A stretch of DNA of 64,000 bases from Eledone cirrhosa (lineage: Eukaryota). The notes beneath the pieces were generated by a model. It made no database searches. It saw only the letters and a program-made list of their open reading frames with translations, and was not told the DNA's origin. A program made the translations under genes and the position numbers. The DNA lies in contig CAXHJY010001213.1 in the NCBI GenBank assembly GCA_964016885.1, positions 11,312-75,311 on the forward strand, written 5' to 3'. Positions 2,475 through 62,323 of the stretch are shown piece after piece (the first letter of the stretch is position 1; each line of letters begins with the position of its first letter).

Positions 2475-5400
2475 GATAGCAACTAACAGTGCTGCGATCG
2501 AATGTGGCTTTTTAGCCCAGCCAATGATCTAAAATGTCTTGCACAGAGTCGGCAACCAAAACATTTACTGGGAATAGTCGGCTGTGGTTGGAGTTCGTGT
2601 ACTTTTGCATGTCGCTTGAGTCCTCCTGCTGATTTACATTCTCTACCACATGTTTGGCAAGCATGATGAGTAGCATCTCCAACAGCAGCCTGGTAGTCAA
2701 CCACTGGTCTTACTTTATGACTGCGAAGATGACTTTCGAGTCCAGCTTTGCTTAGGCAGAGTCTCGCACAGACGCTGCATGTCAGAAACATAGGAGGACC
2801 CTCGCCGTCTGGAAGTGCAACAGCAATACCCTTCCTCACGTCCCGCTTTACTTTCTCGTGTGCGATTCGAGATGCCTCAAAGGCAACTTTTCCCTCATAT
2901 ACAGTCTTTCTCCATTTATTACGATCAGCAGCAATATTTTCCCATGTATCAGCAGAGATGTTAGCGTCTTTCAGAGAGGCCTTCAAGGAATCCTTATACC
3001 TCTTTTTTGGTTTATGTGGCGGTCGTTTTCCTTTAACCAACTCTCCATAGAAGAGTTGTTTTGGTATTCTAGAATCCTTCATCCTGGCAAGGTGACCACT
3101 CCAACGGAGTCGCTGCTTAAGCACAAGAGCTTCTATACTGTCACACATAGAGCTTTCCAAAATCTCGACATCACTGATGTGGTCCCTCCAGCGAACGCCA
3201 TGTATCCGTCTGAGACACATCTGATGGAAACGCTCCAATTGCTTAAGGTGGCGTCGATATGTGACCCAGGTCTCGCAGGCATAAAGAAGACAAGAGAGTA
3301 CACATGCCCTGTACACCTTTACCTTTGTCCTCCTGCATATGTCTCGCCGACCCCAGAGTCGCCTTTCTAGCTTTCCGAAAGCATCACTTGCTTTCCTAAT
3401 CCTAAGTGAGATCTCACTGTCAAGGTTGCCGTATCGATTGACAGTGCTTCCCAGGTAGACAAACTGATCAACCACTCCAAGTCGTTTGCCATACACATAG
3501 ATGTTTGGTTCAGTGTACTGCCTACCAGGTGCAGGTTGGTACATGACGACGGTTTTCTTGAGACTGACAGTCAAACCCAGGGCAGTGCAAGCGTCAGAAA
3601 ATACATTCAAAATGTGCTGCATATCACTCTCTGTGTGCGCTACAAGATCGCAATCATCTGCATACAAGAGGTCTCTTATGACTGATGTAAATACTTTTGT
3701 CTTCGCAGCAAAGCGCCTGATGTTAAATATGCTGCCTGAGGTTCGATATCGGATGTAAACACCATGCTCGCAATTCCTGAATGCAATACAGAAAACCATT
3801 GCAAAGTATATGGCAAACAGGGTCGGTGCTGGAATATCCCCCTGTTTCACTCCATTTTTTACTGAGATAGGCTCCGACATGCTACCTCCGACATTAACCC
3901 AAGCCTTCATGTCGTCATGGAAAGACCTAACTAAAGCAAGGAACTTATCAGGGCAACCAAGTTTCTGGAGAACCTTCCATAATGCATCTCTGTTGACAGT
4001 ATCGAAAGCCTTTGTCAGATCGACAAAAACCTGATACAGATCCAAGCCCTGTTCAATGCACTTCTCCTGGAGCTGTCTAGCTGAGAAGATCATATCAGTA
4101 GTGCCGCGTCCAACACGAAAACCAGATTGACTTTCAGGAAGGACACAATCTGCAATGTGTGTCAGCAGACGGTCCAGAAGCACCCTACATAAAACTTTCC
4201 CCACGACAGAAAGCAATGATATACCTCTGTAGTTCCCACAATCATTCCTGTTACCCTTTCCCTTGTACAAGACCACCATTACTGCATCTCTCCAGTCCTC
4301 AGGCACGGATTCATTAGCCCATATCCTTCCAAACAGAGAGTGAAGATGTTGCAGGAGTCTCTCACCACCATATTGTAGGAGCTCAGCATGTATGCCATCC
4401 ATACCTGGAGATCTTCCACTGTTCAGCTTCGAAATAGCCACTGCAACCTCCACAAGTGTCGGAGGTTCTGCGAGAGCTACTTTCACAGGACTTTCCGGAA
4501 TGAGATTGAGGAAATCTTCACTGACGACAGACGGCTGATTCAAAAGATCATCAAAGTGCTCTCGCCACCTTCGTAGAATTCCCTGTGAGTCACGAAGAAG
4601 TTCTTTGCCATCCTTGCTGCGAATCGGTGTCACCAGAGAAGAAGACGGTCCATAAACCTCACGCAAGAGACTGTACAACAGCTTTGTGTTATTGCAATCA
4701 GACGCAGTTTGTATCTCACCAGCCTTCTCACTCCACCACTGATCCTTCATCTGAGAAAGACTCCGCCTAACACGTGATTTTACATCCCTGAGCTCCTCAT
4801 GCAACGTATTCCTCTCCTGTGGTCTTGCCGTCAAGTAGCGTGACAGAGCGCGCCTCTTATCAGCCAACAAGTCATCTATATGCACATCCTTCTCATCAAA
4901 CCAGTCCTGATGTTTTCTCTGCACCAATCCCAGAACACGTCTGCCTACATCATAAACCGACTTTTTAAGAGTCGGCCAATCCTCACCAAGATCTGCAGCC
5001 TGCATCTCTTCTTCCAATGTCCTCTTCACATTTTTATCCTTAAGACGAGCAGCATTCAATCTTTTGGGCAGGGCAACACCAGGAGCCCGGATTTTACGTT
5101 TGGTGATTAGATTCACTTTTGCGCGTACCAGGCGGTGGTCCGTCCAGCACTCAGCTCCACGAAGAACACGAACACACTGCACATCCTGTCTGTCACGCAT
5201 CCTGACTAGGACGTAGTCCAAAAGATGCCATTCCTTAGATGCAGGATGCATCCATGTGGTCTTGAATTTGTTCTTTTGTTGGAACATGGTGCTGGTAACA
5301 CACAGATCCAGCTCCTCACACATCTGCAGCAAGAGCATACCATTGCTGTTACACTTTCCCACCCCATGCCTTCCGATTACATTCCATGTGTTAAAATCCC

Positions 5401-6067
5401 TACCCACTCTAGCATTAAAGTCACCAAGCACGATGACTTTGTCTGCCTGAGGGATATTTCTTAAAACACCTTTCAAGGCATGGTAAAAGGACAGTTTTTC
5501 TTCATCGACAGAATTCATAGTTGGAGCATACACACTCACCAGGGTAGCATATCTTCCCTTGTCCAGCGGAACTCTCATGGACATAAGACGCTCACTAATC
5601 CCCACTGGGAATTCTTCCAATTTATTCACCAGTACAGTCTTAACAGCAAATCCCACCCCAGCCTCTCTTCTGGTTCCTTCATCTCTTCCTTTCCAGAAGA
5701 ATGTATATTCTCCACAAAATTCCGTAAGATGACCATCTCCAGCTAACCTCGTCTCAGACAAAGCCACGATGTCAAGATCGTAACGTCGAAGCTCCTTCGC
5801 AACAAGAGCGGTCCTTCGTTCAGGACGCTCCAAAGAATCCCTGTCAAGCAGCGTCCGTACGTTCCAGCAGCCAAGACTAAATGCCCTGTTTGGCTCTATT
5901 ACAATGGCACGATGACGGGCGGGCCCAGGTTGTGATAACTTGGGGCCCCTGCCCTTATTGCCAATGATCTCTTTTGTTCCAGAACCCAAATTGGCAATTA
6001 TCTCGTTTACATTGTTCTGGAACATCATTGAATTGGAAAAAAAAAAAAAAAAAAAAAAGTAATAATA

Positions 6068-6102
<35 letters not shown>

Positions 6103-11189: not shown

Positions 11190-12085
11190 GACTATTAATT
11201 ATAGGTTAACTAAATTAAAAATAGTTAATATATTGATTTCTAAGGTGTATACTACTTAGGTTTATAATATTTAAAGCGGAATTTTGAAGTTAAACAGTAG
11301 TAGAGTATTAATTATAGCATAACTAAATTAAAAATATTAACATTATGGTATCAATTTTAGGAAATGAATTTAGTAATAGGGAAAACCAAATCAAGTATTT
11401 CATCGGTAGTAGCATATAAATTATAGGTTAACTAAACTAAAAATTATATATTAATTTCTATAGTATATGTTAATTAGGTTTATAATAATTAAAGCAGATT
11501 TTGTATTTTATCTATAGTAGAATATAATTATAGGTTAACAAAAATTAAAATTAATCTATATATTTATTTGTAAAGAATATATTAATTAGGTATATATTTA
11601 AAAGTTTTTCTCAGTTTATGATTACATGATATTCTGCAATCCATCTGTATTAGAATTTTAATTTTAAGCTAACTAAATTAAAATTATAGGTTAATTAAAT
11701 TAAAATTAATTTATAAATTAATTTCTAAATTGTACATTAATTAGGTTTATAATATTAAAAAGTATTTCTCTGTTATTGATTACACGATATTTTGTTATAT
11801 TTCATCTGTAAAGGAATTTTAATAAAAGGTTAAATAAACTAAAATTAATCTATAAATTAATTTCCAAAGTATATATTAATTATGTTAATAATATTTAAAA
11901 GTTTTTCACAATTTATGATTACACAATATTTTTTTAATCTCATCTGTAGTAGAATTTTAATTAAATTAAAGTTATAGGTTAACTACATTTAAATTAAATT
12001 ATATATTAATTTCTAAAATATATATTATTAATTAGGTTTATAATATTTAAATGTTTTTCTCAGTTTATGATTACACGATATAATT
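11190..12085 (-). repeat. Degenerate tandem repeats (about 110-150 bp) of the PLE ORF 3' end
   Basis: Recurring blocks TAATTAGGTTTATAATATTTAAA..TTTTCTCAGTTTATGATTACA and TTATAGGTTAACTAAATTAAAA match the last codons ([15 protein letters not shown]) of the adjacent ORF. Confidence 0.75.
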
Positions 12086-12760
12086 AATTCCTGTCGCTTA
12101 TTTAATAGGATATCCTTAGATTTCATTATTTCAAATAGTTCTTGGGAACACAATCTACATTCATTTCTATTATTTTGATAAGGGGTGGCTCTTTTGAGCA
12201 CACTCCAGGTCATATCATATTCTATATTCTTATTTCTATAACTATTAATTTTTTCTGCTAGAGATGTTGTATTAGCCAGTGCGGCATTTTTAAAAAAACT
12301 ATGTTTGTGGGTATTAAACCTTACCTTAAAATTGTTAGAAGTAGCTCCGATATATGAGCAAATAGAATCTTTAGTTTTAACTTTACATTTATAAACTATG
12401 TTGTTAACAAGACAATTTCCTTTTAATGGGCAGTTTGCTTTGTTTCTACAGTTACAACCTTTCGTTAATTCTGTATTTGAGGAGATATTATGGTTAGTTT
12501 GATGTATTGGTGGTATACTTATGGTTTTTTTACATTTATATGCATTATAGGCACTTATATTTTGTTTTATGTTTTTGGTTGTTGAGTATGAGAATTTAAC
12601 TGTTGATCTATTTAAGATTTGATGGTATTTGTGGTTTGGCGGGAAGTTTTTCTCTAGGATATAAACAAATTTTTTAGCAATATTATCCTTAATTTGTAAA
12701 TTAAATGGAGCATTATACCAAGTAACTCGTCTATTACGGTTTCTATGTTGTTTATTATTT
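12028..12760 (-). CDS. Penelope-like (Naiad-type) linker plus GIY-YIG endonuclease, 5'-truncated
   Basis: [41 protein letters not shown]...[31 protein letters not shown]. Homologous to 61274-62323. The N-terminus in the ORF track is a microsatellite artefact. Confidence 0.9.
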
Positions 12761-12823
12761 TTATAGGTTATACATACATATATATATATACATATATATA
12801 TACATATATATATATATACATAC

Positions 12824-12861
<38 letters not shown>

Positions 12862-12957
12862 CTATATATACATATATATATATACATACATATATATACA
12901 TATATATATATATACATATATATACATATATATATACATACATATATATATATATAT

Positions 12958-12988
<31 letters not shown>

Positions 12989-13055
12989 CATATATATACA
13001 TATATATATACATACATATATATATATATATACATACATATATATACATATATAT

Positions 13056-13096
<41 letters not shown>

Positions 13097-13113
13097 CATA
13101 TATATATATATAT

Positions 13114-13168
<55 letters not shown>

Positions 13169-13170
13169 CA

Positions 13171-15035
13171 TATAGACATAGAATATTCGAAAATATTCTG
13201 TATGTTTATAATAAACATTTTGAAGACCTAATCGCTATAGAATAGAATACGTCACGTATTACAATTAGATTCTCGATAAAAGCAAGGGAAGTAATCTACG
13301 CGTTTCATTCTCGTTAGAAATCATCAGGACTACATATCCAGTGCTTTTATCGAGAATGACACAGCTAGAGACTTATAGAATACTTAGCTGTGTACAGGAA
13401 CTGGTTTGAAAGAGCGGTTGCCGGTCCGGCAGAAATTAGAAATTGGAATAAATGCTCTGAAATAGCGATATATATGTGAATATAGACATAGAATATTCGA
13501 AAATATTCTGTATGTTTATAATAAACATTTTGAAGACCTAATCGCTATAGAATAGAATACGTCACGTATTACAATTAGATTCTCGATAAAAGCAAGGGAA
13601 GTAATCTACGCGTTTCATTCTCGTTAGAAATCATCAGGACTACATATCCAGTGCTTTTATCGAGAATGACACAGCTAGAGACTTATAGAATACTTAGCTG
13701 TGTACAGGAACTGGTTTGAAAGAGCGGTTGCCGGTCCGGCAGAAATTAGAAATTGGAATAAATGCTCTGAAATAGCGATATATATGTGAATATAGACATA
13801 GAATATTCGAAAATATTCTGTATGTTTATAATAAACATTTTGAAGACCTAATCGCTATAGAATAGAATACGTCACGTATTACAATTAGATTCTCGATAAA
13901 AGCAAGGGAAGTAATCTACGCGTTTCATTCTCGTTAGAAATCATCAGGACTACATATCCAGTGCTTTTATCGAGAATGACACAGCTAGAGACTTATAGAA
14001 TACTTAGCTGTGTACAGGAACTGGTTTGAAAGAGCGGTTGCCGGTCCGGCAGAAATTAGAAATTGGAATAAATGCTCTGAAATAGCGATATATATGTGAA
14101 TATAGACATAGAATATTCGAAAATATTCTGTATGTTTATAATAAACATTTTGAAGACCTAATCGCTATAGAATAGAATACGTCACGTATTACAATTAGAT
14201 TCTCGATAAAAGCAAGGGAAGTAATCTACGCGTTTCATTCTCGTTAGAAATCATCAGGACTACATATCCAGTGCTTTTATCGAGAATGACACAGCTAGAG
14301 ACTTATAGAATACTTAGCTGTGTACAGGAACTGGTTTGAAAGAGCGGTTGCCGGTCCGGCAGAAATTAGAAATTGGAATAAATGCTCTGAAATAGCGATA
14401 TATATGTGAATATAGACATAGAATATTCGAAAATATTCTGTATGTTTATAATAAACATTTTGAAGACCTAATCGCTATAGAATAGAATACGTCACGTATT
14501 ACAATTAGATTCTCGATAAAAGCAAGGGAAGTAATCTACGCGTTTCATTCTCGTTAGAAATCATCAGGACTACATATCCAGTGCTTTTATCGAGAATGAC
14601 ACAGCTAGAGACTTATAGAATACTTAGCTGTGTACAGGAACTGGTTTGAAAGAGCGGTTGCCGGTCCGGCAGAAATTAGAAATTGGAATAAATGCTCTGA
14701 AATAGCGATATATATGTGAATATAGACATAGAATATTCGAAAATATTCTGTATGTTTATAATAAACATTTTGAAGACCTAATCGCTATAGAATAGAATAC
14801 GTCACGTATTACAATTAGATTCTCGATAAAAGCAAGGGAAGTAATCTACGCGTTTCATTCTCGTTAGAAATCATCAGGACTACATATCCAGTGCTTTTAT
14901 CGAGAATGACACAGCTAGAGACTTATAGAATACTTAGCTGTGTACAGGAACTGGTTTGAAAGAGCGGTTGCCGGTCCGGCAGAAATTAGAAATTGGAATA
15001 AATGCTCTGAAATAGCGATATATATGTGAATATAG
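13171..15035 (-). repeat. Tandem array of 6 x 310-bp units, each with a minus-strand hammerhead
   Basis: TATAGACATAGAATATTCG recurs at 13171, 13481, 13791, 14101, 14411 and 14721. The first HHR is at 13269-13357 (-). Confidence 0.97.
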
Positions 15036-17931
15036 ATTAGGTCTTCAAAATGTTTATTATAAACATACAGAATATTTTCGAATATTCTATGTCTATATTC
15101 ACATATATATCGCTATTTCAGAGCATTTATTCCAATTTCTAATTTCTGCCGGACCGGCAACCGCTCTTTCAAACCAGTTCCTGTACACAGCTAAGTATTC
15201 TATAAGTCTCTAGCTGTGTCATTCTCGATAAAAGCACTGGATATGTAGTCCTGATGATTTCTAACGAGAATGAAACGCGTAGATTACTTCCCTTGCTTTT
15301 ATCGAGAATCTAATTGTAATACGTGACGTATTCTATTCTATAGCGATTAGGTCTTCAAAATGTTTATTATAAACATACAGAATATTTTCGAATATTCTAT
15401 GTCTATATTCACATATATATCGCTATTTCAGAGCATTTATTCCAATTTCTAATTTCTGCCGGACCGGCAACCGCTCTTTCAAACCAGTTCCTGTACACAG
15501 CTAAGTATTCTATAAGTCTCTAGCTGTGTCATTCTCGATAAAAGCACTGGATATGTAGTCCTGATGATTTCTAACGAGAATGAAACGCGTAGATTACTTC
15601 CCTTGCTTTTATCGAGAATCTAATTGTAATACGTGACGTATTCTATTCTATAGCGATTAGGTCTTCAAAATGTTTATTATAAACATACAGAATATTTTCG
15701 AATATTCTATGTCTATATTCACATATATATCGCTATTTCAGAGCATTTATTCCAATTTCTAATTTCTGCCGGACCGGCAACCGCTCTTTCAAACCAGTTC
15801 CTGTACACAGCTAAGTATTCTATAAGTCTCTAGCTGTGTCATTCTCGATAAAAGCACTGGATATGTAGTCCTGATGATTTCTAACGAGAATGAAACGCGT
15901 AGATTACTTCCCTTGCTTTTATCGAGAATCTAATTGTAATACGTGACGTATTCTATTCTATAGCGATTAGGTCTTCAAAATGTTTATTATAAACATACAG
16001 AATATTTTCGAATATTCTATGTCTATATTCACATATATATCGCTATTTCAGAGCATTTATTCCAATTTCTAATTTCTGCCGGACCGGCAACCGCTCTTTC
16101 AAACCAGTTCCTGTACACAGCTAAGTATTCTATAAGTCTCTAGCTGTGTCATTCTCGATAAAAGCACTGGATATGTAGTCCTGATGATTTCTAACGAGAA
16201 TGAAACGCGTAGATTACTTCCCTTGCTTTTATCGAGAATCTAATTGTAATACGTGACGTATTCTATTCTATAGCGATTAGGTCTTCAAAATGTTTATTAT
16301 AAACATACAGAATATTTTCGAATATTCTATGTCTATATTCACATATATATCGCTATTTCAGAGCATTTATTCCAATTTCTAATTTCTGCCGGACCGGCAA
16401 CCGCTCTTTCAAACCAGTTCCTGTACACAGCTAAGTATTCTATAAGTCTCTAGCTGTGTCATTCTCGATAAAAGCACTGGATATGTAGTCCTGATGATTT
16501 CTAACGAGAATGAAACGCGTAGATTACTTCCCTTGCTTTTATCGAGAATCTAATTGTAATACGTGACGTATTCTATTCTATAGCGATTAGGTCTTCAAAA
16601 TGTTTATTATAAACATACAGAATATTTTCGAATATTCTATGTCTATATTCACATATATATCGCTATTTCAGAGCATTTATTCCAATTTCTAATTTCTGCC
16701 GGACCGGCAACCGCTCTTTCAAACCAGTTCCTGTACACAGCTAAGTATTCTATAAGTCTCTAGCTGTGTCATTCTCGATAAAAGCACTGGATATGTAGTC
16801 CTGATGATTTCTAACGAGAATGAAACGCGTAGATTACTTCCCTTGCTTTTATCGAGAATCTAATTGTAATACGTGACGTATTCTATTCTATAGCGATTAG
16901 GTCTTCAAAATGTTTATTATAAACATACAGAATATTTTCGAATATTCTATGTCTATATTCACATATATATCGCTATTTCAGAGCATTTATTCCAATTTCT
17001 AATTTCTGCCGGACCGGCAACCGCTCTTTCAAACCAGTTCCTGTACACAGCTAAGTATTCTATAAGTCTCTAGCTGTGTCATTCTCGATAAAAGCACTGG
17101 ATATGTAGTCCTGATGATTTCTAACGAGAATGAAACGCGTAGATTACTTCCCTTGCTTTTATCGAGAATCTAATTGTAATACGTGACGTATTCTATTCTA
17201 TAGCGATTAGGTCTTCAAAATGTTTATTATAAACATACAGAATATTTTCGAATATTCTATGTCTATATTCACATATATATCGCTATTTCAGAGCATTTAT
17301 TCCAATTTCTAATTTCTGCCGGACCGGCAACCGCTCTTTCAAACCAGTTCCTGTACACAGCTAAGTATTCTATAAGTCTCTAGCTGTGTCATTCTCGATA
17401 AAAGCACTGGATATGTAGTCCTGATGATTTCTAACGAGAATGAAACGCGTAGATTACTTCCCTTGCTTTTATCGAGAATCTAATTGTAATACGTGACGTA
17501 TTCTATTCTATAGCGATTAGGTCTTCAAAATGTTTATTATAAACATACAGAATATTTTCGAATATTCTATGTCTATATTCACATATATATCGCTATTTCA
17601 GAGCATTTATTCCAATTTCTAATTTCTGCCGGACCGGCAACCGCTCTTTCAAACCAGTTCCTGTACACAGCTAAGTATTCTATAAGTCTCTAGCTGTGTC
17701 ATTCTCGATAAAAGCACTGGATATGTAGTCCTGATGATTTCTAACGAGAATGAAACGCGTAGATTACTTCCCTTGCTTTTATCGAGAATCTAATTGTAAT
17801 ACGTGACGTATTCTATTCTATAGCGATTAGGTCTTCAAAATGTTTATTATAAACATACAGAATATTTTCGAATATTCTATGTCTATATTCACATATATAT
17901 CGCTATTTCAGAGCATTTATTCCAATTTCTA
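15035..17931 (+). repeat. Tandem array of 9.3 x the same 310-bp unit, inverted, each with a plus-strand hammerhead
   Basis: GATTAGGTCTTC recurs at 15035, 15345 and every 310 bp to 17825. It is the reverse complement of the left array and ends in (TA)n. Confidence 0.97.
15221..15309 (+). ncRNA. Type I hammerhead of the 310-bp unit (representative of 15 copies)
   Basis: Distal stem I ATTCTCGATAAAAGCA/TGCTTTTATCGAGAAT (16 bp), internal loop, proximal stem I GTAGTC/GATTAC, CTGATGA (15251-15257), stem II TTCT-AACG-AGAA, GAAA (15272-15275), palindromic CGCG, cleavage after GTA (15281). Confidence 0.92.
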
Positions 17932-18035
17932 TATACATATATATATACATACATATATATATACATACATATATATATACATACATATATATATACATAC
18001 ATATATATATACATACATATATATATACATACATA

Positions 18036-18074
<39 letters not shown>

Positions 18075-18120
18075 GCATACATACATATATATATATACAT
18101 ATATATATATGCATACATAC

Positions 18121-18168
<48 letters not shown>

Positions 18169-18178
18169 GCATACATAC

Positions 18179-18244
<66 letters not shown>

Positions 18245-18245
<1 letters not shown>

Positions 18246-24749: not shown

Positions 24750-25625
24750 GTCTATTAATTTGTAAGGTGAGCAAATGGGGTCCCACGTGCTGGCATCCCC
24801 ACATCCCCTGCGGACAAGATGAAGAAGGTATTTCTCCGGCGGTTGGTAAGGGAGATGCGCTGGAAGAGCCATTCCAACTCGCGAGGCTCACACCTGCGGC
24901 TGGCCATCTCAGCACCTATGGTGGTGAATAGGGAGGTAGCCCTAGGGCCAAGGACACCAGAAGTCTCCACTGCCAAGGGCACGACCGCGAACCTATCGGA
25001 GAGTGACCGGTACTTGGAGAGTTTGGCCTCCTCAGCCCGACGTGCAGCAGTACCTGGGTTAGTCGCAGACTGCACCAGCTTGCGGCTCGAGAAAGTGTCG
25101 CTGCAACTGGCATCCCAGACGAGCGATTTGCCACCGCGGAACGGGAAGATGGTCATACCGTCTGGCCTTTTGCCATCCCTCGGTCGAGCCCCACCGACTC
25201 GAGCTGGGAGGGGAAGTCTGCAGCGTCCAAGCCATGCTTATTGACCCCGTTGAGTGCAGCATGACGTAGAAAGCGGCCGGCACTGTGGTGACAGGAAAGC
25301 GAGTGGAAGCCGAAAGAGTCCACGGTGGATCCACAGCGACATTTATGTGGCTTGCAGATCCGGAGTCCAAACCTCAAGAAAACGCCGATGCGCAAGGCAT
25401 GGAGCAAGGCATGGAGCCAGGCACCACTGTGGGGTTTGGAGGCAGCGCGAAAACAGGCAAGGCGGTGCTGGTCGAGCTGGCGCGTGAGCCTGTCTGAGGC
25501 CAGGCTGCACTGGATGGCATCCCATACGCGTTGGGGGAGAAGGAGGAGGGACGTCTACTGGGGTAAGTCCCAGCCTGTCCCACGTCTCATAGGCGACCTC
25601 ACGCTCCCTGAACACAGAGGGTTCT
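24750..25625 (-). pseudogene. CRE-like non-LTR retrotransposon 3' fragment (zinc knuckle plus restriction-like endonuclease)
   Basis: CRCGSTVDSFGFHSLSC..RH, WDASCSDT, AEEAKLSKY, VPLAVETSG. Frameshifted paralogue of 48284-49324. Confidence 0.9.
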
Positions 25626-47780: not shown

Positions 47781-49324
47781 AGGCCCCTCTCAACGTTTGG
47801 TATCTGGATGATGCTACGTTGGGCGGGCCCGTACGGACGGTCTGCAAAGACCTTCAATCGGTGATTCCTACCCTGGCGGGAATCGGCCTCCAGGTCAACT
47901 CGGCCAAGTCGGAGGTGGTGAACGTCAGCCTCGATGCTGTGAGCTTTGCAGCCTCCGTCTTGGACGTGCGGTCCATTCTCCGCCAGGTTCAGGTGACTCC
48001 CCAAAGAGGATGTCCTCATCCTCGGGTCACCGATCCATCCGCCGGCCATCCGCTCCACCATCAGGTCGAGGCTTCAACAACTCCAGACTCTCACGAGCCG
48101 ACTGGGCTTGATTGACGGCCACCCAGCTCCCTTTCTGCTGAGGAACTGCTTCGCCATGCCGAAGCTCTTCTAAACACTCCGCAGCGCTCCATGCTACACC
48201 CAGACATCTCTCCTCGCTGACCTCGATACTTGTATCCGAACAGCAGCCGAGGGGATATGCAACGTCAAGTTTGACGACATAGGGTGGCAACAGGCCACTT
48301 TACCGGTCAGGTATGGCGGCCTAGGCCTCCGGTCCCCGATCTCCTAGCTTTGCCGGCGTATCTTTCGTCGGTAACCTCGTGCCGCGTCCTCGTCAGCAGG
48401 GTTCTTCAAAACACAACAGAACCCTCTGTGTTCAGAGAACGTGAGGCCGCCTGTGAGACGTGGGACCGGTTGGAACTTAGCCCAGTAGACGTCCCTTCTC
48501 CTTCTCCCCCTGTTGACGTCAAGTCCCCCCAACGCACTTGGGATGCCATCCAGAGCAGCCTGGCCTCAGACAGGCTCACGCGCCAGCTCGACCAGCACCG
48601 CCTTGCTTGTTTTCGTGCGGCCTCCAAACCCCACAGTGGTGCCTGGCTCCATGCTCTGCCCTCCTTCTCCACTGGCACGCAGCTAGACAACCATAGCCTG
48701 CGAATCGGCATTTCCCTGAGGCTCGGCCTCCGGATCTGCCAGCCACACCAATGTCGCTGCGGTTCCACCGTGGACTCTTTCGGCCTCCACCCGCTTTCCT
48801 GTCGCCACAGTGCCGGCCACATTCCACGCCATACTGCCCTCAACGAGGTCATTAAGCATGGCTTGGACGCTGCAGGCTTCCCTTCCCAGCTCGAGCCGGT
48901 GGGGCTGGATCGAGGGGACGGCAAAAGGCCAGATGGCATGACCATCTTCCCGTTCCGAGGTGGCAAACCCCTCGTCTGGGATGCCACTTGCACCGACACT
49001 TTCTGCAGCCGCAATCTGGTGCAGTCTGCGACTGACCCAGGTTCTGCTGCACGTCGGGCTGAGGGGGCCAAACTCCTCAAATACCGGTCGCCCGCCGACA
49101 GGTTTGCGGTCGTTCCCCTGGCAGTGGAAACTTCTGGTGTCCTCAGCCCCAGGGCTACCTCCTTACTCACTAACATAGGCGCGGAGCTGGCCAGCCGTAG
49201 GTGTGAGCCCCGCGAGTTGGAGTGGCTTTTCCAGCGCGTCTCCCTTGCCGTCCTCCGGGGAAACGCCTTCTCCATTCTGTCCGCCGGGGCTGTGGGTGGG
49301 CCCCATCGCGTACCATTACATTAG
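47781..49324 (+). pseudogene. 5'-truncated CRE-like non-LTR retrotransposon (RT C-terminus, zinc knuckle, RLE endonuclease)
   Basis: NVWYLDDATLGG, GLQVNSAKSE, HSGAWLHALP, CRCG..HPLSC, RH, KRPDG, WDATC, VPLAVETSG; frameshifts and a stop between 48000 and 48340. Confidence 0.92.
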
Positions 49325-59460: not shown

Positions 59461-59561
59461 GTGGTGGTGGTGGTGGTGGTGGTGGTGGAGATCAGACCTG
59501 AGAGTACGTGAATTATTTAAGGACGTAAGAATGAAAACTAAAGTTTAAATATTTATTTATT

Positions 59562-62323
59562 ATGGCTAAGCCTTGTTCCCTTGTGGTCCTACGTGCGTAC
59601 TCACGAGGCAAGACTGGTGATCCTGTGAGTGCGCAGGTGAAAGTTTACTTGCCTTTATCTCTGAAAAATATTCCCACCCCCTCTAAGAATACTTACCTAA
59701 AACTACTGATAGCTAGTGTTAACTCCTTTGTAAAATGGATTAGATGGCGTGCGTTTCACTACGATAGTAATAAGAATAGGAAGGACCCCAGGAATAGAAC
59801 ACATTTTAATAAATACGGCTTCAAAACTTATAAGAGCCCACCACACAACATACTATTAGATAGTTTCGAAGGTGACTTACTCTCTCTGGTCAAAAATGTT
59901 AGGTTTAGGCTAAATATTAGACATAGAAACAATAGTAATTTTGATAAATTCCAGTCCAGACTTAAAAATATTGTTAAGGGTTTCGGTGAGAATAAGTCCA
60001 TTCTGGTCCCGGCAGATAAGACTAAGAATCTATACTCCATGGACTATAGTACATACCGCGATTTTATTTATAAAGAGTTATTTAGAAACTATAAAAAACT
60101 ACGCTTGAGAATTTGAACCACATCAATAGTGAGGGCCTTAGAATAGTCTCTGACCTCGGACTCGATAAGTATACCCAGCCATATTACCCTCGATAACCGA
60201 GATTCACACTTAAGGACCATAAGGTTGATTTTATTAGTAACCCCTCAGTTAGACTTATCTGTCCTTCTAAGTCGGATATAACCATTATCAGTAAAAAAAT
60301 CCTTGACCTTATTATACCAGATGTTAGGGATAAGGTTAATTTTAACCTATGGGGGAACACTAGGGAAGTTATAGATTGGTTCTCTGGGATTAATAGACTT
60401 GAATCTAATAAGTTTATCCAATTCGATATTGATGCCTACTACACATCAATTTCACCCATCCTCCTCAATAAAGCCTTAATGTTGGCCATGAGAGTGTCCA
60501 GCCTTACACGATCGCAGGTAGATATTATACTAGCAGCCCGTAAAACTATTATTAAATTTGAGGACACTTTTTGGACCCGTAAAAACACGCCCAATAATTT
60601 CGACGTTACAATGGGTTCGAGTGATTCGGCCCAGGTTACTGATCTTGTTGGGTTGTTCCTCCTTAATGAACTATACGCTACCTTCCCGCACCTTATAGGC
60701 GGACTATATCGTGATGATGCATTGTTTGTAATTAACTCTAGTACCAACAATGTAGAACTTAATAAGAAGAAGCTTTATAAGTTTTTTAAAAGCTACAACC
60801 TTTCAATCACGATAGATAGAAATGATAGAGCGGTTAACTTTTTAGATGTGACTTTGGACTTGGCCACTAATAGTTTTAAACCCTTCCATAAGCCTAATGA
60901 AATCCTTTCTTATGTTAGCCCCAATTCTAACCACCCTAAGTCTATGATAAACTCTATAATTAAGGGCGTTTCTAATAGGATTTCCACACTATCTAAGGAC
61001 ATAGGAACTTTTAATGAACATGCGGAGTACTACAATAATGCCCTAGCAAATTCAGGTCACTCTAGTAAAATAAATTATAATAATAGTAACTTTAGAAAGT
61101 CTCCGCTTACTCTTAATAATAATAACATTATATCACATAACATCGCCATGAATGGGAGTAGCAAACATAGTAACCGTAGAACTTATATAGGAGTATCTGA
61201 ACCCACCCATAAGTTATCCCACCGGACTCGTAATAGCAAATATAATACCTCTAGGAGATAAGTCGAGCCCCCTGTGCGCTCACGCATTGGAGTTGGTTTG
61301 GCTGGATCTTATTCTAGTAATGTTGCTCCTACTGATCCTATCATTGGCCTTAATCCTCTTGTAGGGATTCCGGACAACAGCGGATCTACTGGAGGTAGAA
61401 ACTATAATAGGCATAACGAAATTATGGCTGATTCTATGAATGTGGCCTCAACTATTCCCGATAGTAACCCTAGTCTCGACGGTGGGACATTTGATAGAGG
61501 TAGGGTCGATAAGAATAAAAATAAAAATAGAAGGCGATTAAATACTTATTTCAACCCGCCATATAACCAGGATGTATCAACTAATATCCCTAGGTCTTTC
61601 TTCACTATCTTAGAGAAAAATTTCCCCCCTTCTCACAAATACCATGGTATTTTTAATAAAAATGTTATTAAACTCTCATTCTCTACCACCCCTAATATTA
61701 GTTCTCATTTAGCTAGCACTAATAATAGGAAAATTAGGGATGGATTCTCCTCTCTACATACTACTAGTCTGAATGCATCGGACAATGCTTTACCACCAGA
61801 ACAGTCCTTATCTAATAGAGGTCCTACGTGTAATACATCACCACTCGAGCCAACCAATAACACCCGGAAGTGCAATTGTAGAGTGAGTGCTAACTGCCCT
61901 CTAAACGGTAACTGCCTTTCTAAGAACATTGTCTACGCTTGCGAGGTTATAACTAATTCCTCTAAAAGAACGTATATAGGATCTACTTCAAACACTTTTA
62001 AGACTAGGTTTAACTCTCATATCTCTAACTTCAAACATGTTAGGTTTAAGAATTCTACCTCTCTAGCGCATTATATCTGGGATCTTAAGGGAGCTTATAT
62101 ACCATATAGCCTTAACTGGTGTTTAGTAGCACGATCTAACCACCTTTCTGCACATAGTAAGTTTTGTAATCTCTGTATACTTGAGACACACTCTATTATT
62201 TTCTCTAGCGTACCCTTACTGAATAGAAAGTCTGAGATATTCTCTTCTTGCCCCCATGCCATTTCTAATTCTTATTTTTATTATAAACCCAAATGTTCTA
62301 GTAGTACAAATTGTACCCATTAG
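59562..62323 (+). pseudogene. Near full-length Penelope-like element (Naiad-type) ORF: RT plus C-terminal GIY-YIG, with three lesions
   Basis: SLKNIPTP, VPADKTKNLY, TLKDHK, RLICPSKS, QFDIDAYYTSI, FDVTMGSSDSA, GLYRDDAL, NFLDVTLDL, SNHP, FNPPYN, CNCR..CPLNGNCL, IVY..YIG, CNLC..E, LNRKSE. Frameshift in an A6 run near 60098; in-frame TAA at 60194 and 61259. Confidence 0.92.

Follow-up and report, generated by a model that had tools for sequence, protein, structure and literature searches.

A dispersed 310-bp hammerhead repeat of Eledone cirrhosa as a probable retrozyme with insertion ends of the Penelope type

We analysed a stretch of 64,000 nt from Eledone cirrhosa (assembly GCA_964016885.1, contig CAXHJY010001213.1, positions 11,312 to 75,311), called the window in the following, which harbors two inverted tandem arrays of a 310-bp unit with one hammerhead motif per copy. 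Our preferred interpretation, with a probability of about 0.7, is that this unit is a young non-coding retrozyme without long terminal repeats (LTRs), mobilised in trans by a Penelope-like element (PLE), most likely of the Hydra clade, which copies a circle made by the ribozyme. Integration of the PLE type in trans is very probable from the ends of the arrays, and the monomer circle is quite probably the template. Its class, that of the animal non-LTR retrozymes, is already known; the element does not found a new one.

Anatomy of the arrays and their dispersal

The features of the array in the window are listed below. Unit positions are numbered from the base after the predicted ribozyme cut, window position 15282 being position 0.

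13170..15036, minus strand: minus arm, 1,867 bp, 6.02 identical units; sense 3' end at 13170 (left), the "short" end, at unit position 126; 5' end at position 120
15035..17931, plus strand: plus arm, 2,897 bp, 9.35 identical units; 5' end at unit position 63; sense 3' end at 17931, the "long" end, at position 169
15035..15036, no strand: 5'-to-5' inversion junction, two bases common to both arms (2-nt microhomology)
12769..13169, no strand: left (TA)n/TACA target tract ((TA)n-type repeat called at 12769-13174)
17932..18245, no strand: right (TA)n/TACA target tract ((TA)n-type repeat called at 17930-18245)
15282..15591, plus strand: one monomer from cut site to cut site, positions 0-309, predicted 310-nt circle, 34.5% GC
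15220..15309, plus strand: type I hammerhead in the first copy of the plus arm, its core enclosed by stem I with a proximal part of 6 bp and a distal part of 16 bp
15251..15281, plus strand: catalytic core with CUGAUGA, U.U-closed stem II, GAAA and palindromic stem III (A-CGCG-U)
15340..15451, plus strand: body segment, positions 58-169, with a long hairpin and the two fixed end sites
17889..17931, plus strand: PLE-type "tail", 43 nt at the long end, missing from the short end of the window insertion

Both arms matched the 310-bp unit with 0 mismatches, and their extents agreed with those from Tandem Repeats Finder. No stop-free frame of at least 150 aa was present within the arrays of the window. 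LTRs were not found, the arms being bounded by (TA)n; primer binding site and polypurine tract were not searched for. The unit size and the GC content of 34.5% fit the range of retrozymes (150-450 bp, GC below 50%). The initial annotation had described a bidirectional array of about 6 minus and 9.3 plus non-coding copies inserted in (TA)n, and this description was confirmed.

To determine copy numbers in the 3.0-Gb genome we counted exact sequence patterns. The 31-nt core gave 4,226 matches and the reversed control none, so the matches do not arise by chance. A 15-mer from the body matched 18,541 times, a count that takes in the sister family described below. On the forward strand 756 long and 870 short junctions of the unit to (TA)5 were found, compared to 1 at a control position. 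Doubled for both strands (reverse-strand counts were redundant with these and not added), this corresponds to about 1,500-1,700 insertions, and about 18,500 units in that many loci are consistent with a mean array of about 11 units. As the initial annotation had anticipated, the array is thus one of many dispersed copies and not a single locus. Dispersed loci with distinct flanks, together with contigs of sequencing run X3 whose loose ends are TA runs, 10 at one end site and 6 at the other, ruled out an assembly artefact; X3 may be the source sample. The unit was contained in public runs filed under four different organisms (X1, X2, X3 and X6), with one contig in X1 and X2 identical to the window variant; close relatives, mixed samples or transfer could account for this. 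Closed 340-nt contigs in X1 and X2 carry no weight here, since an RNA circle and tandem DNA would look alike in them.

We mapped 52 loci: the window, 10 loci found by the core and 41 found by the long end, the latter two groups on a single chromosome (contig C1). The counts exclude L041, which lacks the unit, L059, which continues into an N gap, repeat entries for one locus, two minor internal fragments of L103 and a piece of the sister family in L105. Two arms joined 5'-to-5' were present at 48 of the 52 loci, while two loci had a single arm and two ran past the examined stretch. In all 48 two-arm loci one arm ended at position 115-140 (short) and the other at position 158-172 (long). This applied to 10/10 pairs that were unselected on ends and to 38/38 that were selected by the long end. 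The offset between both ends was 26-47 nt with a median of 35. Almost all outer flanks (94/96) had (TA)4 within 30 nt. Retrozymes are defined with a target-site duplication of more than 4 bp when one is present (PMC7229834); here the flanks consist of (TA)n, in which a duplication would not stand out. At L031, L032 and L036 an interrupted TA motif in the flanks was often alike on both sides of the insertion and reiterated. This could be a minisatellite older than the insertion or a product of it.

The 96 inner ends were spread uniformly round the unit (chi-square p=0.44). An apparent excess at positions 115-135 (13/96, nominal p=0.013) disappeared in a window-scan permutation (p=0.59). Only 2/96 inner ends were located within 10 nt of the cut, compared to 6.5 expected, over 475 arm crossings of the cut site. 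The two inner phases of a locus were independent of each other (5/48 within 15 nt, 4.8 expected), and this ruled out fold-back or self-priming, an idea raised for palindromic PLE junctions (PMC3846280), as source of the inversion. At 30 of the 48 junctions the arms overlapped by 0-4 nt. The short end is in a UA-rich tract and can be accounted for by microhomology priming; the long end cannot.

The initial annotation had expected a variable start phase. This held for the inner 5' ends, while the outer 3' ends were fixed at two sites. It had also noticed the bidirectional form in the window, but missed that this form is the rule in the family. An inverted 5'-truncated copy and a tail of 30-40 bp at one end only are marks of PLE insertion (PMC8557442). 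The fixed paired ends carry this signature, and a coding PLE of the same genome, PLE-A, follows the same rule (see below), which supported the proposed involvement of a PLE.

An older sister family has a 319-bp unit and 312 core matches (L153:945-1275; L208-L211). It shares 70-81% of positions 59-235 with the 310-bp unit, and has the same end sites and the two-arm form. Its hammerhead differs by a U3-A8 core, 4-bp stems II and III and a GUC triplet; covariation to a U3-A8 core was reported for PLEs of Schistosoma (PMC4209133). In a comparison limited to three sequences, 18 of 85 consensus pairs were changed on both sides with the architecture kept. The body segment 15340..15451 was also kept, with compensatory changes, and is a candidate cis-signal for the PLE protein. 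In the sister family the ribozyme may have been exchanged, or have turned over rapidly, while the body was conserved.

Fold of the hammerhead and selection on it

The window contained 15 hammerhead cores (9 plus, 6 minus), one in each of the 15 copies. The first GUA cleavage triplet on the plus strand ended at 15281 and the others followed every 310 nt, exactly where the initial annotation had placed them; the cut itself is predicted after 15281. All conserved core positions (C3-A9, G12-A15.1, U16.1 and H17) were present, and none of them showed an array-fixed change. A full type I hammerhead per unit had been claimed, and this was correct for the core but not for stem II, which is closed by U.U instead of the usual G10.1-C11.1. 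We regard this pair as a point against the retrozyme interpretation. It was changed to A-U in 7/52 loci, and the axolotl ribozyme HHR_Amex2 likewise has U.U at the base of helix II (PMC7229834). Hammerhead cores with a U.U-closed stem II were very abundant in the genome, with 23,283 forward matches and many loop variants.

Scoring with the Rfam hammerhead models, as the initial annotation had proposed, gave no match at the gathering threshold nor at E up to 10, which also counts against our interpretation. The ribozyme assignment was therefore based on fold, selection and covariation-type tests. In the predicted fold of the monomer a long stem I, which contains an internal loop, closed the unit (-72.5 kcal/mol, z -3.91; of 100 shuffled sequences one folded equally well). 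For the natural dimer a double hammerhead was calculated at -109.9 kcal/mol, compared to -90.2 kcal/mol for two single ribozymes. This structure was 19.7 kcal/mol better and at most 1 kcal/mol from the minimum-energy fold. The pairing probability of stem III was 0.84-0.93 between copies and 0 within a copy, and stem III is not predicted to form in the folded circle. The suggestion that a palindromic stem III leads to cleavage as a dimer thus received support from the modeled fold. Cleavage in multimers and protection in circles were described for such motifs (PMC4209133).

We called variants in 167 kb of the mapped loci (the minus arm of L105 was left out here and included in the analysis of substitutions and selection). 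Among 183 calls, 90 were fixed in every covered copy, 13 were partial and 80 private. Nine substitutions occurred at a single locus only, and each was fixed in both arms of this locus. Such homogeneity of the arms is what one template of monomer length gives. Nine of the 20 distinct array-fixed substitutions were within the ribozyme region. All nine preserved the fold, while 15 of the 16 private substitutions in this region broke it (Fisher p=5e-6). The fold-preserving fixed changes comprised exchanges between G.U and A-U, changes at N7 and in loop 2, and the change from U.U to A-U. A random change would break the fold in 72% of the possible cases. Since array-fixed substitutions keep the fold and private ones break it, we conclude with high confidence that the hammerhead is a functional ribozyme under selection. 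No sign of selection was seen on predicted body pairs outside the ribozyme (fixed, 4 break and 2 keep; private, 20 and 4).

Penelope-like elements in the same genome

A pattern derived from a related core led to a PLE family, PLE-A (4,379 matches), that lies in (TA)n and has an intact open reading frame (ORF) of 712 aa with DKT, CxCX5C and GIY-YIG motifs. PLE-A shares the U.U stem II and the GUA triplet with the retrozyme, and its core matched in 25 of 28 nt. All 13 examined inverted pairs of PLE-A consisted of a short and a long end. The partner of the retrozyme is likely a Hydra-clade PLE, judged from these features; that it was specifically PLE-A, the family that shares the core, is a tentative assignment. 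Pfam gave only sub-threshold GIY-YIG matches for the PLE proteins, so the likely assignment to the Hydra clade was made from motifs and not from a tree.

Within PLE-A (L142-L165, L201) the 5' ends of 8/13 inverted pairs were 5-18 nt apart and just upstream of the ribozyme core; such clustering contrasts with the uniform inner ends of the retrozyme. Locus L182 (C1, 83.68-83.69 Mb) contained about 12 tandem PLE-A units with ribozyme, about 1.07-1.1 kb each and without ORF, possibly a retrozyme in the making.

Two further young families of the Hydra type, PLE-B and PLE-C, each had pieces in the window. Neither of them was attached to the array. The PLE-B hammerhead was different and canonical. 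The hammerhead of PLE-C was also different, with a long helix II as read by eye. The PLEs and other coding features are as follows:

12028-12775, minus strand: PLE-C piece, 5'-truncated, Hydra type, with 97-100% identical relatives; adjoins the left TA tract
59535-62323, plus strand: PLE-B piece, Hydra type, split by stops
L173:770-6790 (C1, about 14.205-14.211 Mb): full-length PLE of the Hydra type, intact ORF, 3' region made up of about 3 kb of microsatellite
2483-6100, minus strand: apparently intact long interspersed nuclear element (LINE), open 1,205-aa frame with AP-endonuclease, reverse transcriptase (RT) and C2H2 fingers
48275-49324, plus strand, and 24755-25237, minus strand: two related coding fragments, the longer one without Pfam match

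The 3' region of the PLE-C piece extended to at least 10950, with diverged repeats of the ORF end at 11395-12081. In relatives of PLE-B the frame was open over about 915 aa, and the hammerhead was canonical. The 5' end of the full-length PLE at L173 was about 10 nt upstream of the ribozyme core, and this copy is therefore longer than a molecule running from cut to cut. The two coding fragments give the impression of the end of another retroelement.

Template, mechanism and relation to known systems

The observations can be put together as follows. Read-through transcripts of an array would fold as double hammerheads, as the calculated structure suggests, and would release monomers of 310 nt. 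The monomers would be ligated to circles, a step for which RtcB was shown to act on other retrozymes (PMC7229834), and the circle would be protected from cutting because stem III cannot form in it. A (TA)n tract would then be cut on both strands by the endonuclease-RT of a PLE. Reverse transcription would be primed by each of the DNA ends at either of two internal sites, separated by about 35 nt, where the outer ends of the arms are found. Cleavage and extension of both strands as well as two internal start sites were seen for another PLE in vitro (PMC11167929). Both syntheses would circle the template, at most about 19-25 times, and end at random points, in accordance with the uniform and independent 5' ends. 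Finally, the two products would be joined 5'-to-5', mostly by the 0-4 nt of microhomology observed at the junctions.

Several findings weigh against this interpretation. The anole PLE inserted ribozyme-dead RNA in vitro as well as wild type RNA, and uncut RNA was its main substrate (PMC11167929). Eight of nine predicted dimers of Xenopus retrozymes did not cleave (bioRxiv 10.64898/2026.07.22.740005). The end offset of PLE-A is about 70 nt and not 35, and beyond the 28-nt core the unit had no real similarity to PLE-A, PLE-B or the examined PLE-C flanks. All loci except the window were from the first 102 Mb of the chromosome. The homogeneity expected from one circle was broken in L120, L124, L132, L110, L111 and L140. 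In L120 the arms differed at position 275, save for the two copies nearest to the junction; synthesis may have switched from one circle to another, or the copies may have been converted once inserted. In L132 one variant occupied copies of equal index in the two arms, the pattern expected from a multimer template. Homogeneity could also come from a source array that was already homogeneous.

The last points bear on the alternative that the same element and PLE machinery used a long uncut linear array transcript, primed internally from both target ends, with the ribozyme acting elsewhere or rarely. Such a scenario was proposed from the in vitro work on the anole PLE (PMC11167929). The variant in L132 and the mosaic arms of L120 and L124 fit it, and an uncut template would likewise give no pile-up of 5' ends at the cut. 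However, it needs transcripts of up to 25 units to stay uncut, yet the best fold of the dimer is the active double hammerhead. By itself it leaves unexplained the nine cases of single-locus variants fixed in all copies of both arms, and also why only fold-preserving changes of the ribozyme are passed on. We consider it unlikely, although it is the most serious of the alternatives. Cleaved linear monomers, with the RT jumping from end to end at the ribozyme cut each time, would likewise require an active ribozyme, and a one-base insertion two positions past the cut, fixed in L103 and L107, is compatible with such jumps. The scarcity of inner ends near the cut despite 475 crossings argues against them, and jumps between molecules would mix variants within arms, which was rare (13 partial compared to 90 fixed variants). 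The probability of copying from linear monomers is accordingly very low.

Spreading at the DNA level, either by excised circles, rolling-circle copying and reinsertion or by unequal crossover, would make the hammerhead a relic. Local expansion of PLE termini to tandem repeats was proposed (bioRxiv 10.64898/2026.07.22.740005), and L110 showed a duplication of 7 units. The strict strand polarity with two fixed ends, one per arm, in 48/48 loci, the occurrence of this rule also in a coding PLE, and selection on the RNA fold, with G.U tolerated, already largely refuted this explanation, and we rate its probability slightly below that of linear monomers. Least probable of all, and hardly to be considered, is that a coding PLE family which escaped notice has the unit as its pseudo-LTR (pLTR) and left the arrays as truncated ends. 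The unit and PLE-A have the ribozyme core in common, and the comparison covered three PLE families, while the candidates number in the tens of thousands. A junction of the unit to an ORF was nevertheless found in 0/52 loci, the arms were pure unit repeats between (TA)n tracts, and the about 18,500 units over about 1,500-1,700 loci match the mean array size. The initial annotation had named a pLTR origin as the finding that would overturn it; the comparison with the three families and the lack of ORF junctions spoke for the retrozyme.

Dispersal, dimer fold, selection on the ribozyme and PLE-type ends all supported the identity as retrozyme that had been suggested from the window. The features of retrozymes that are readable from sequence were all found: unit size, GC content, hammerhead, non-coding unit, dispersal and co-resident PLEs. 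Like other animal non-LTR retrozymes (PMC7229834; bioRxiv 10.64898/2026.07.22.740005), the family is built of tandem units without coding capacity, in the size range 150-450 bp and below 50% GC, has one type I hammerhead per unit and a self-paired monomer, and shares its genome with PLEs. Amphibian retrozyme ribozymes cleave better as dimers (PMC7229834). Expression, cleavage and circles were shown for these elements, whereas they are predictions for the 310-bp family. Here insertion as two arms is the rule, while the main texts of both reports do not mention inverted arms, fixed paired ends or tails, or microsatellite targeting for retrozymes. The initial annotation knew of no description of the family; the class is in print in these two reports. 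Among titles and abstracts of the literature we found no description of this retrozyme anatomy, subscription papers and the supplement of PMC7229834 lying outside the search.

The anatomy resembles that of endonuclease-positive (EN+) PLEs of the Hydra clade, which have an inverted 5'-truncated copy at the 5' end, a one-sided tail of 30-40 bp, a (TA)n target and a hammerhead (PMC8557442). In contrast to EN+ PLEs, which are recognised by RT and GIY-YIG, the 310-bp family has no ORF, the 310-nt unit is the whole element with up to 25 units per arm, and no homology of its body to the three examined PLE families was detected. The anole Poseidon PLE, PAc, also cuts and extends both DNA strands at an AT-rich target and starts reverse transcription at two neighbouring sites within the RNA, downstream of the hammerhead, that delimit the tail (PMC11167929). 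In vitro, PAc showed no difference in start sites between strands and its ribozyme was dispensable, while here the two sites are divided between the arms, one each, in 48/48 loci and selection acts on the ribozyme.

Newt satellite 2 and the Sm-alpha repeats of Schistosoma are tandem repeats with type I hammerheads, too. This likeness is one of descriptions, and their sequences are different from the 310-bp unit. For the newt motif dimeric cleavage through an elongated helix III was described. In twin priming of L1, both ends of the target break prime cDNA on the element RNA, and the resulting inversion is joined by microhomology. Twin-primed L1 products cover separate parts of one linear RNA, while both arms here cover the same unit many times.

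That PLEs and retrozymes are copied from circular templates was proposed in 2014 and 2020 (PMC4209133, PMC7229834), and an in vitro PLE study favored a linear multimer (PMC11167929). Mobilisation of retrozymes by PLEs so far rested on co-occurrence and phylogeny (bioRxiv 10.64898/2026.07.22.740005). PLE-specific ends on a non-coding ribozyme repeat, together with read-through of the cleavage site and selection on the fold, are direct genomic footprints that bear on both questions. The value of the family lies in this mechanistic record of how the element moves and in its use as a test substrate: as one genome supplies both a substrate of 310 nt and an intact candidate for the enzyme, the question of circle or linear template becomes directly testable. 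The chances are about even that the insertions record the PLE reaction in vivo, with two offset primings, one per target end, and rolling-circle synthesis on a ribozyme-made circle, and that the 6-kb coding Hydra element behaves likewise; the full-length copy of the latter starts upstream of its own cleavage site. If this is true, the function of the PLE hammerhead would be to make a circular template. Tandem pLTRs, inverted 5' copies and one-sided tails would then be explained by a single mechanism, and the 310-nt cis-signal would be usable by any cargo circle.

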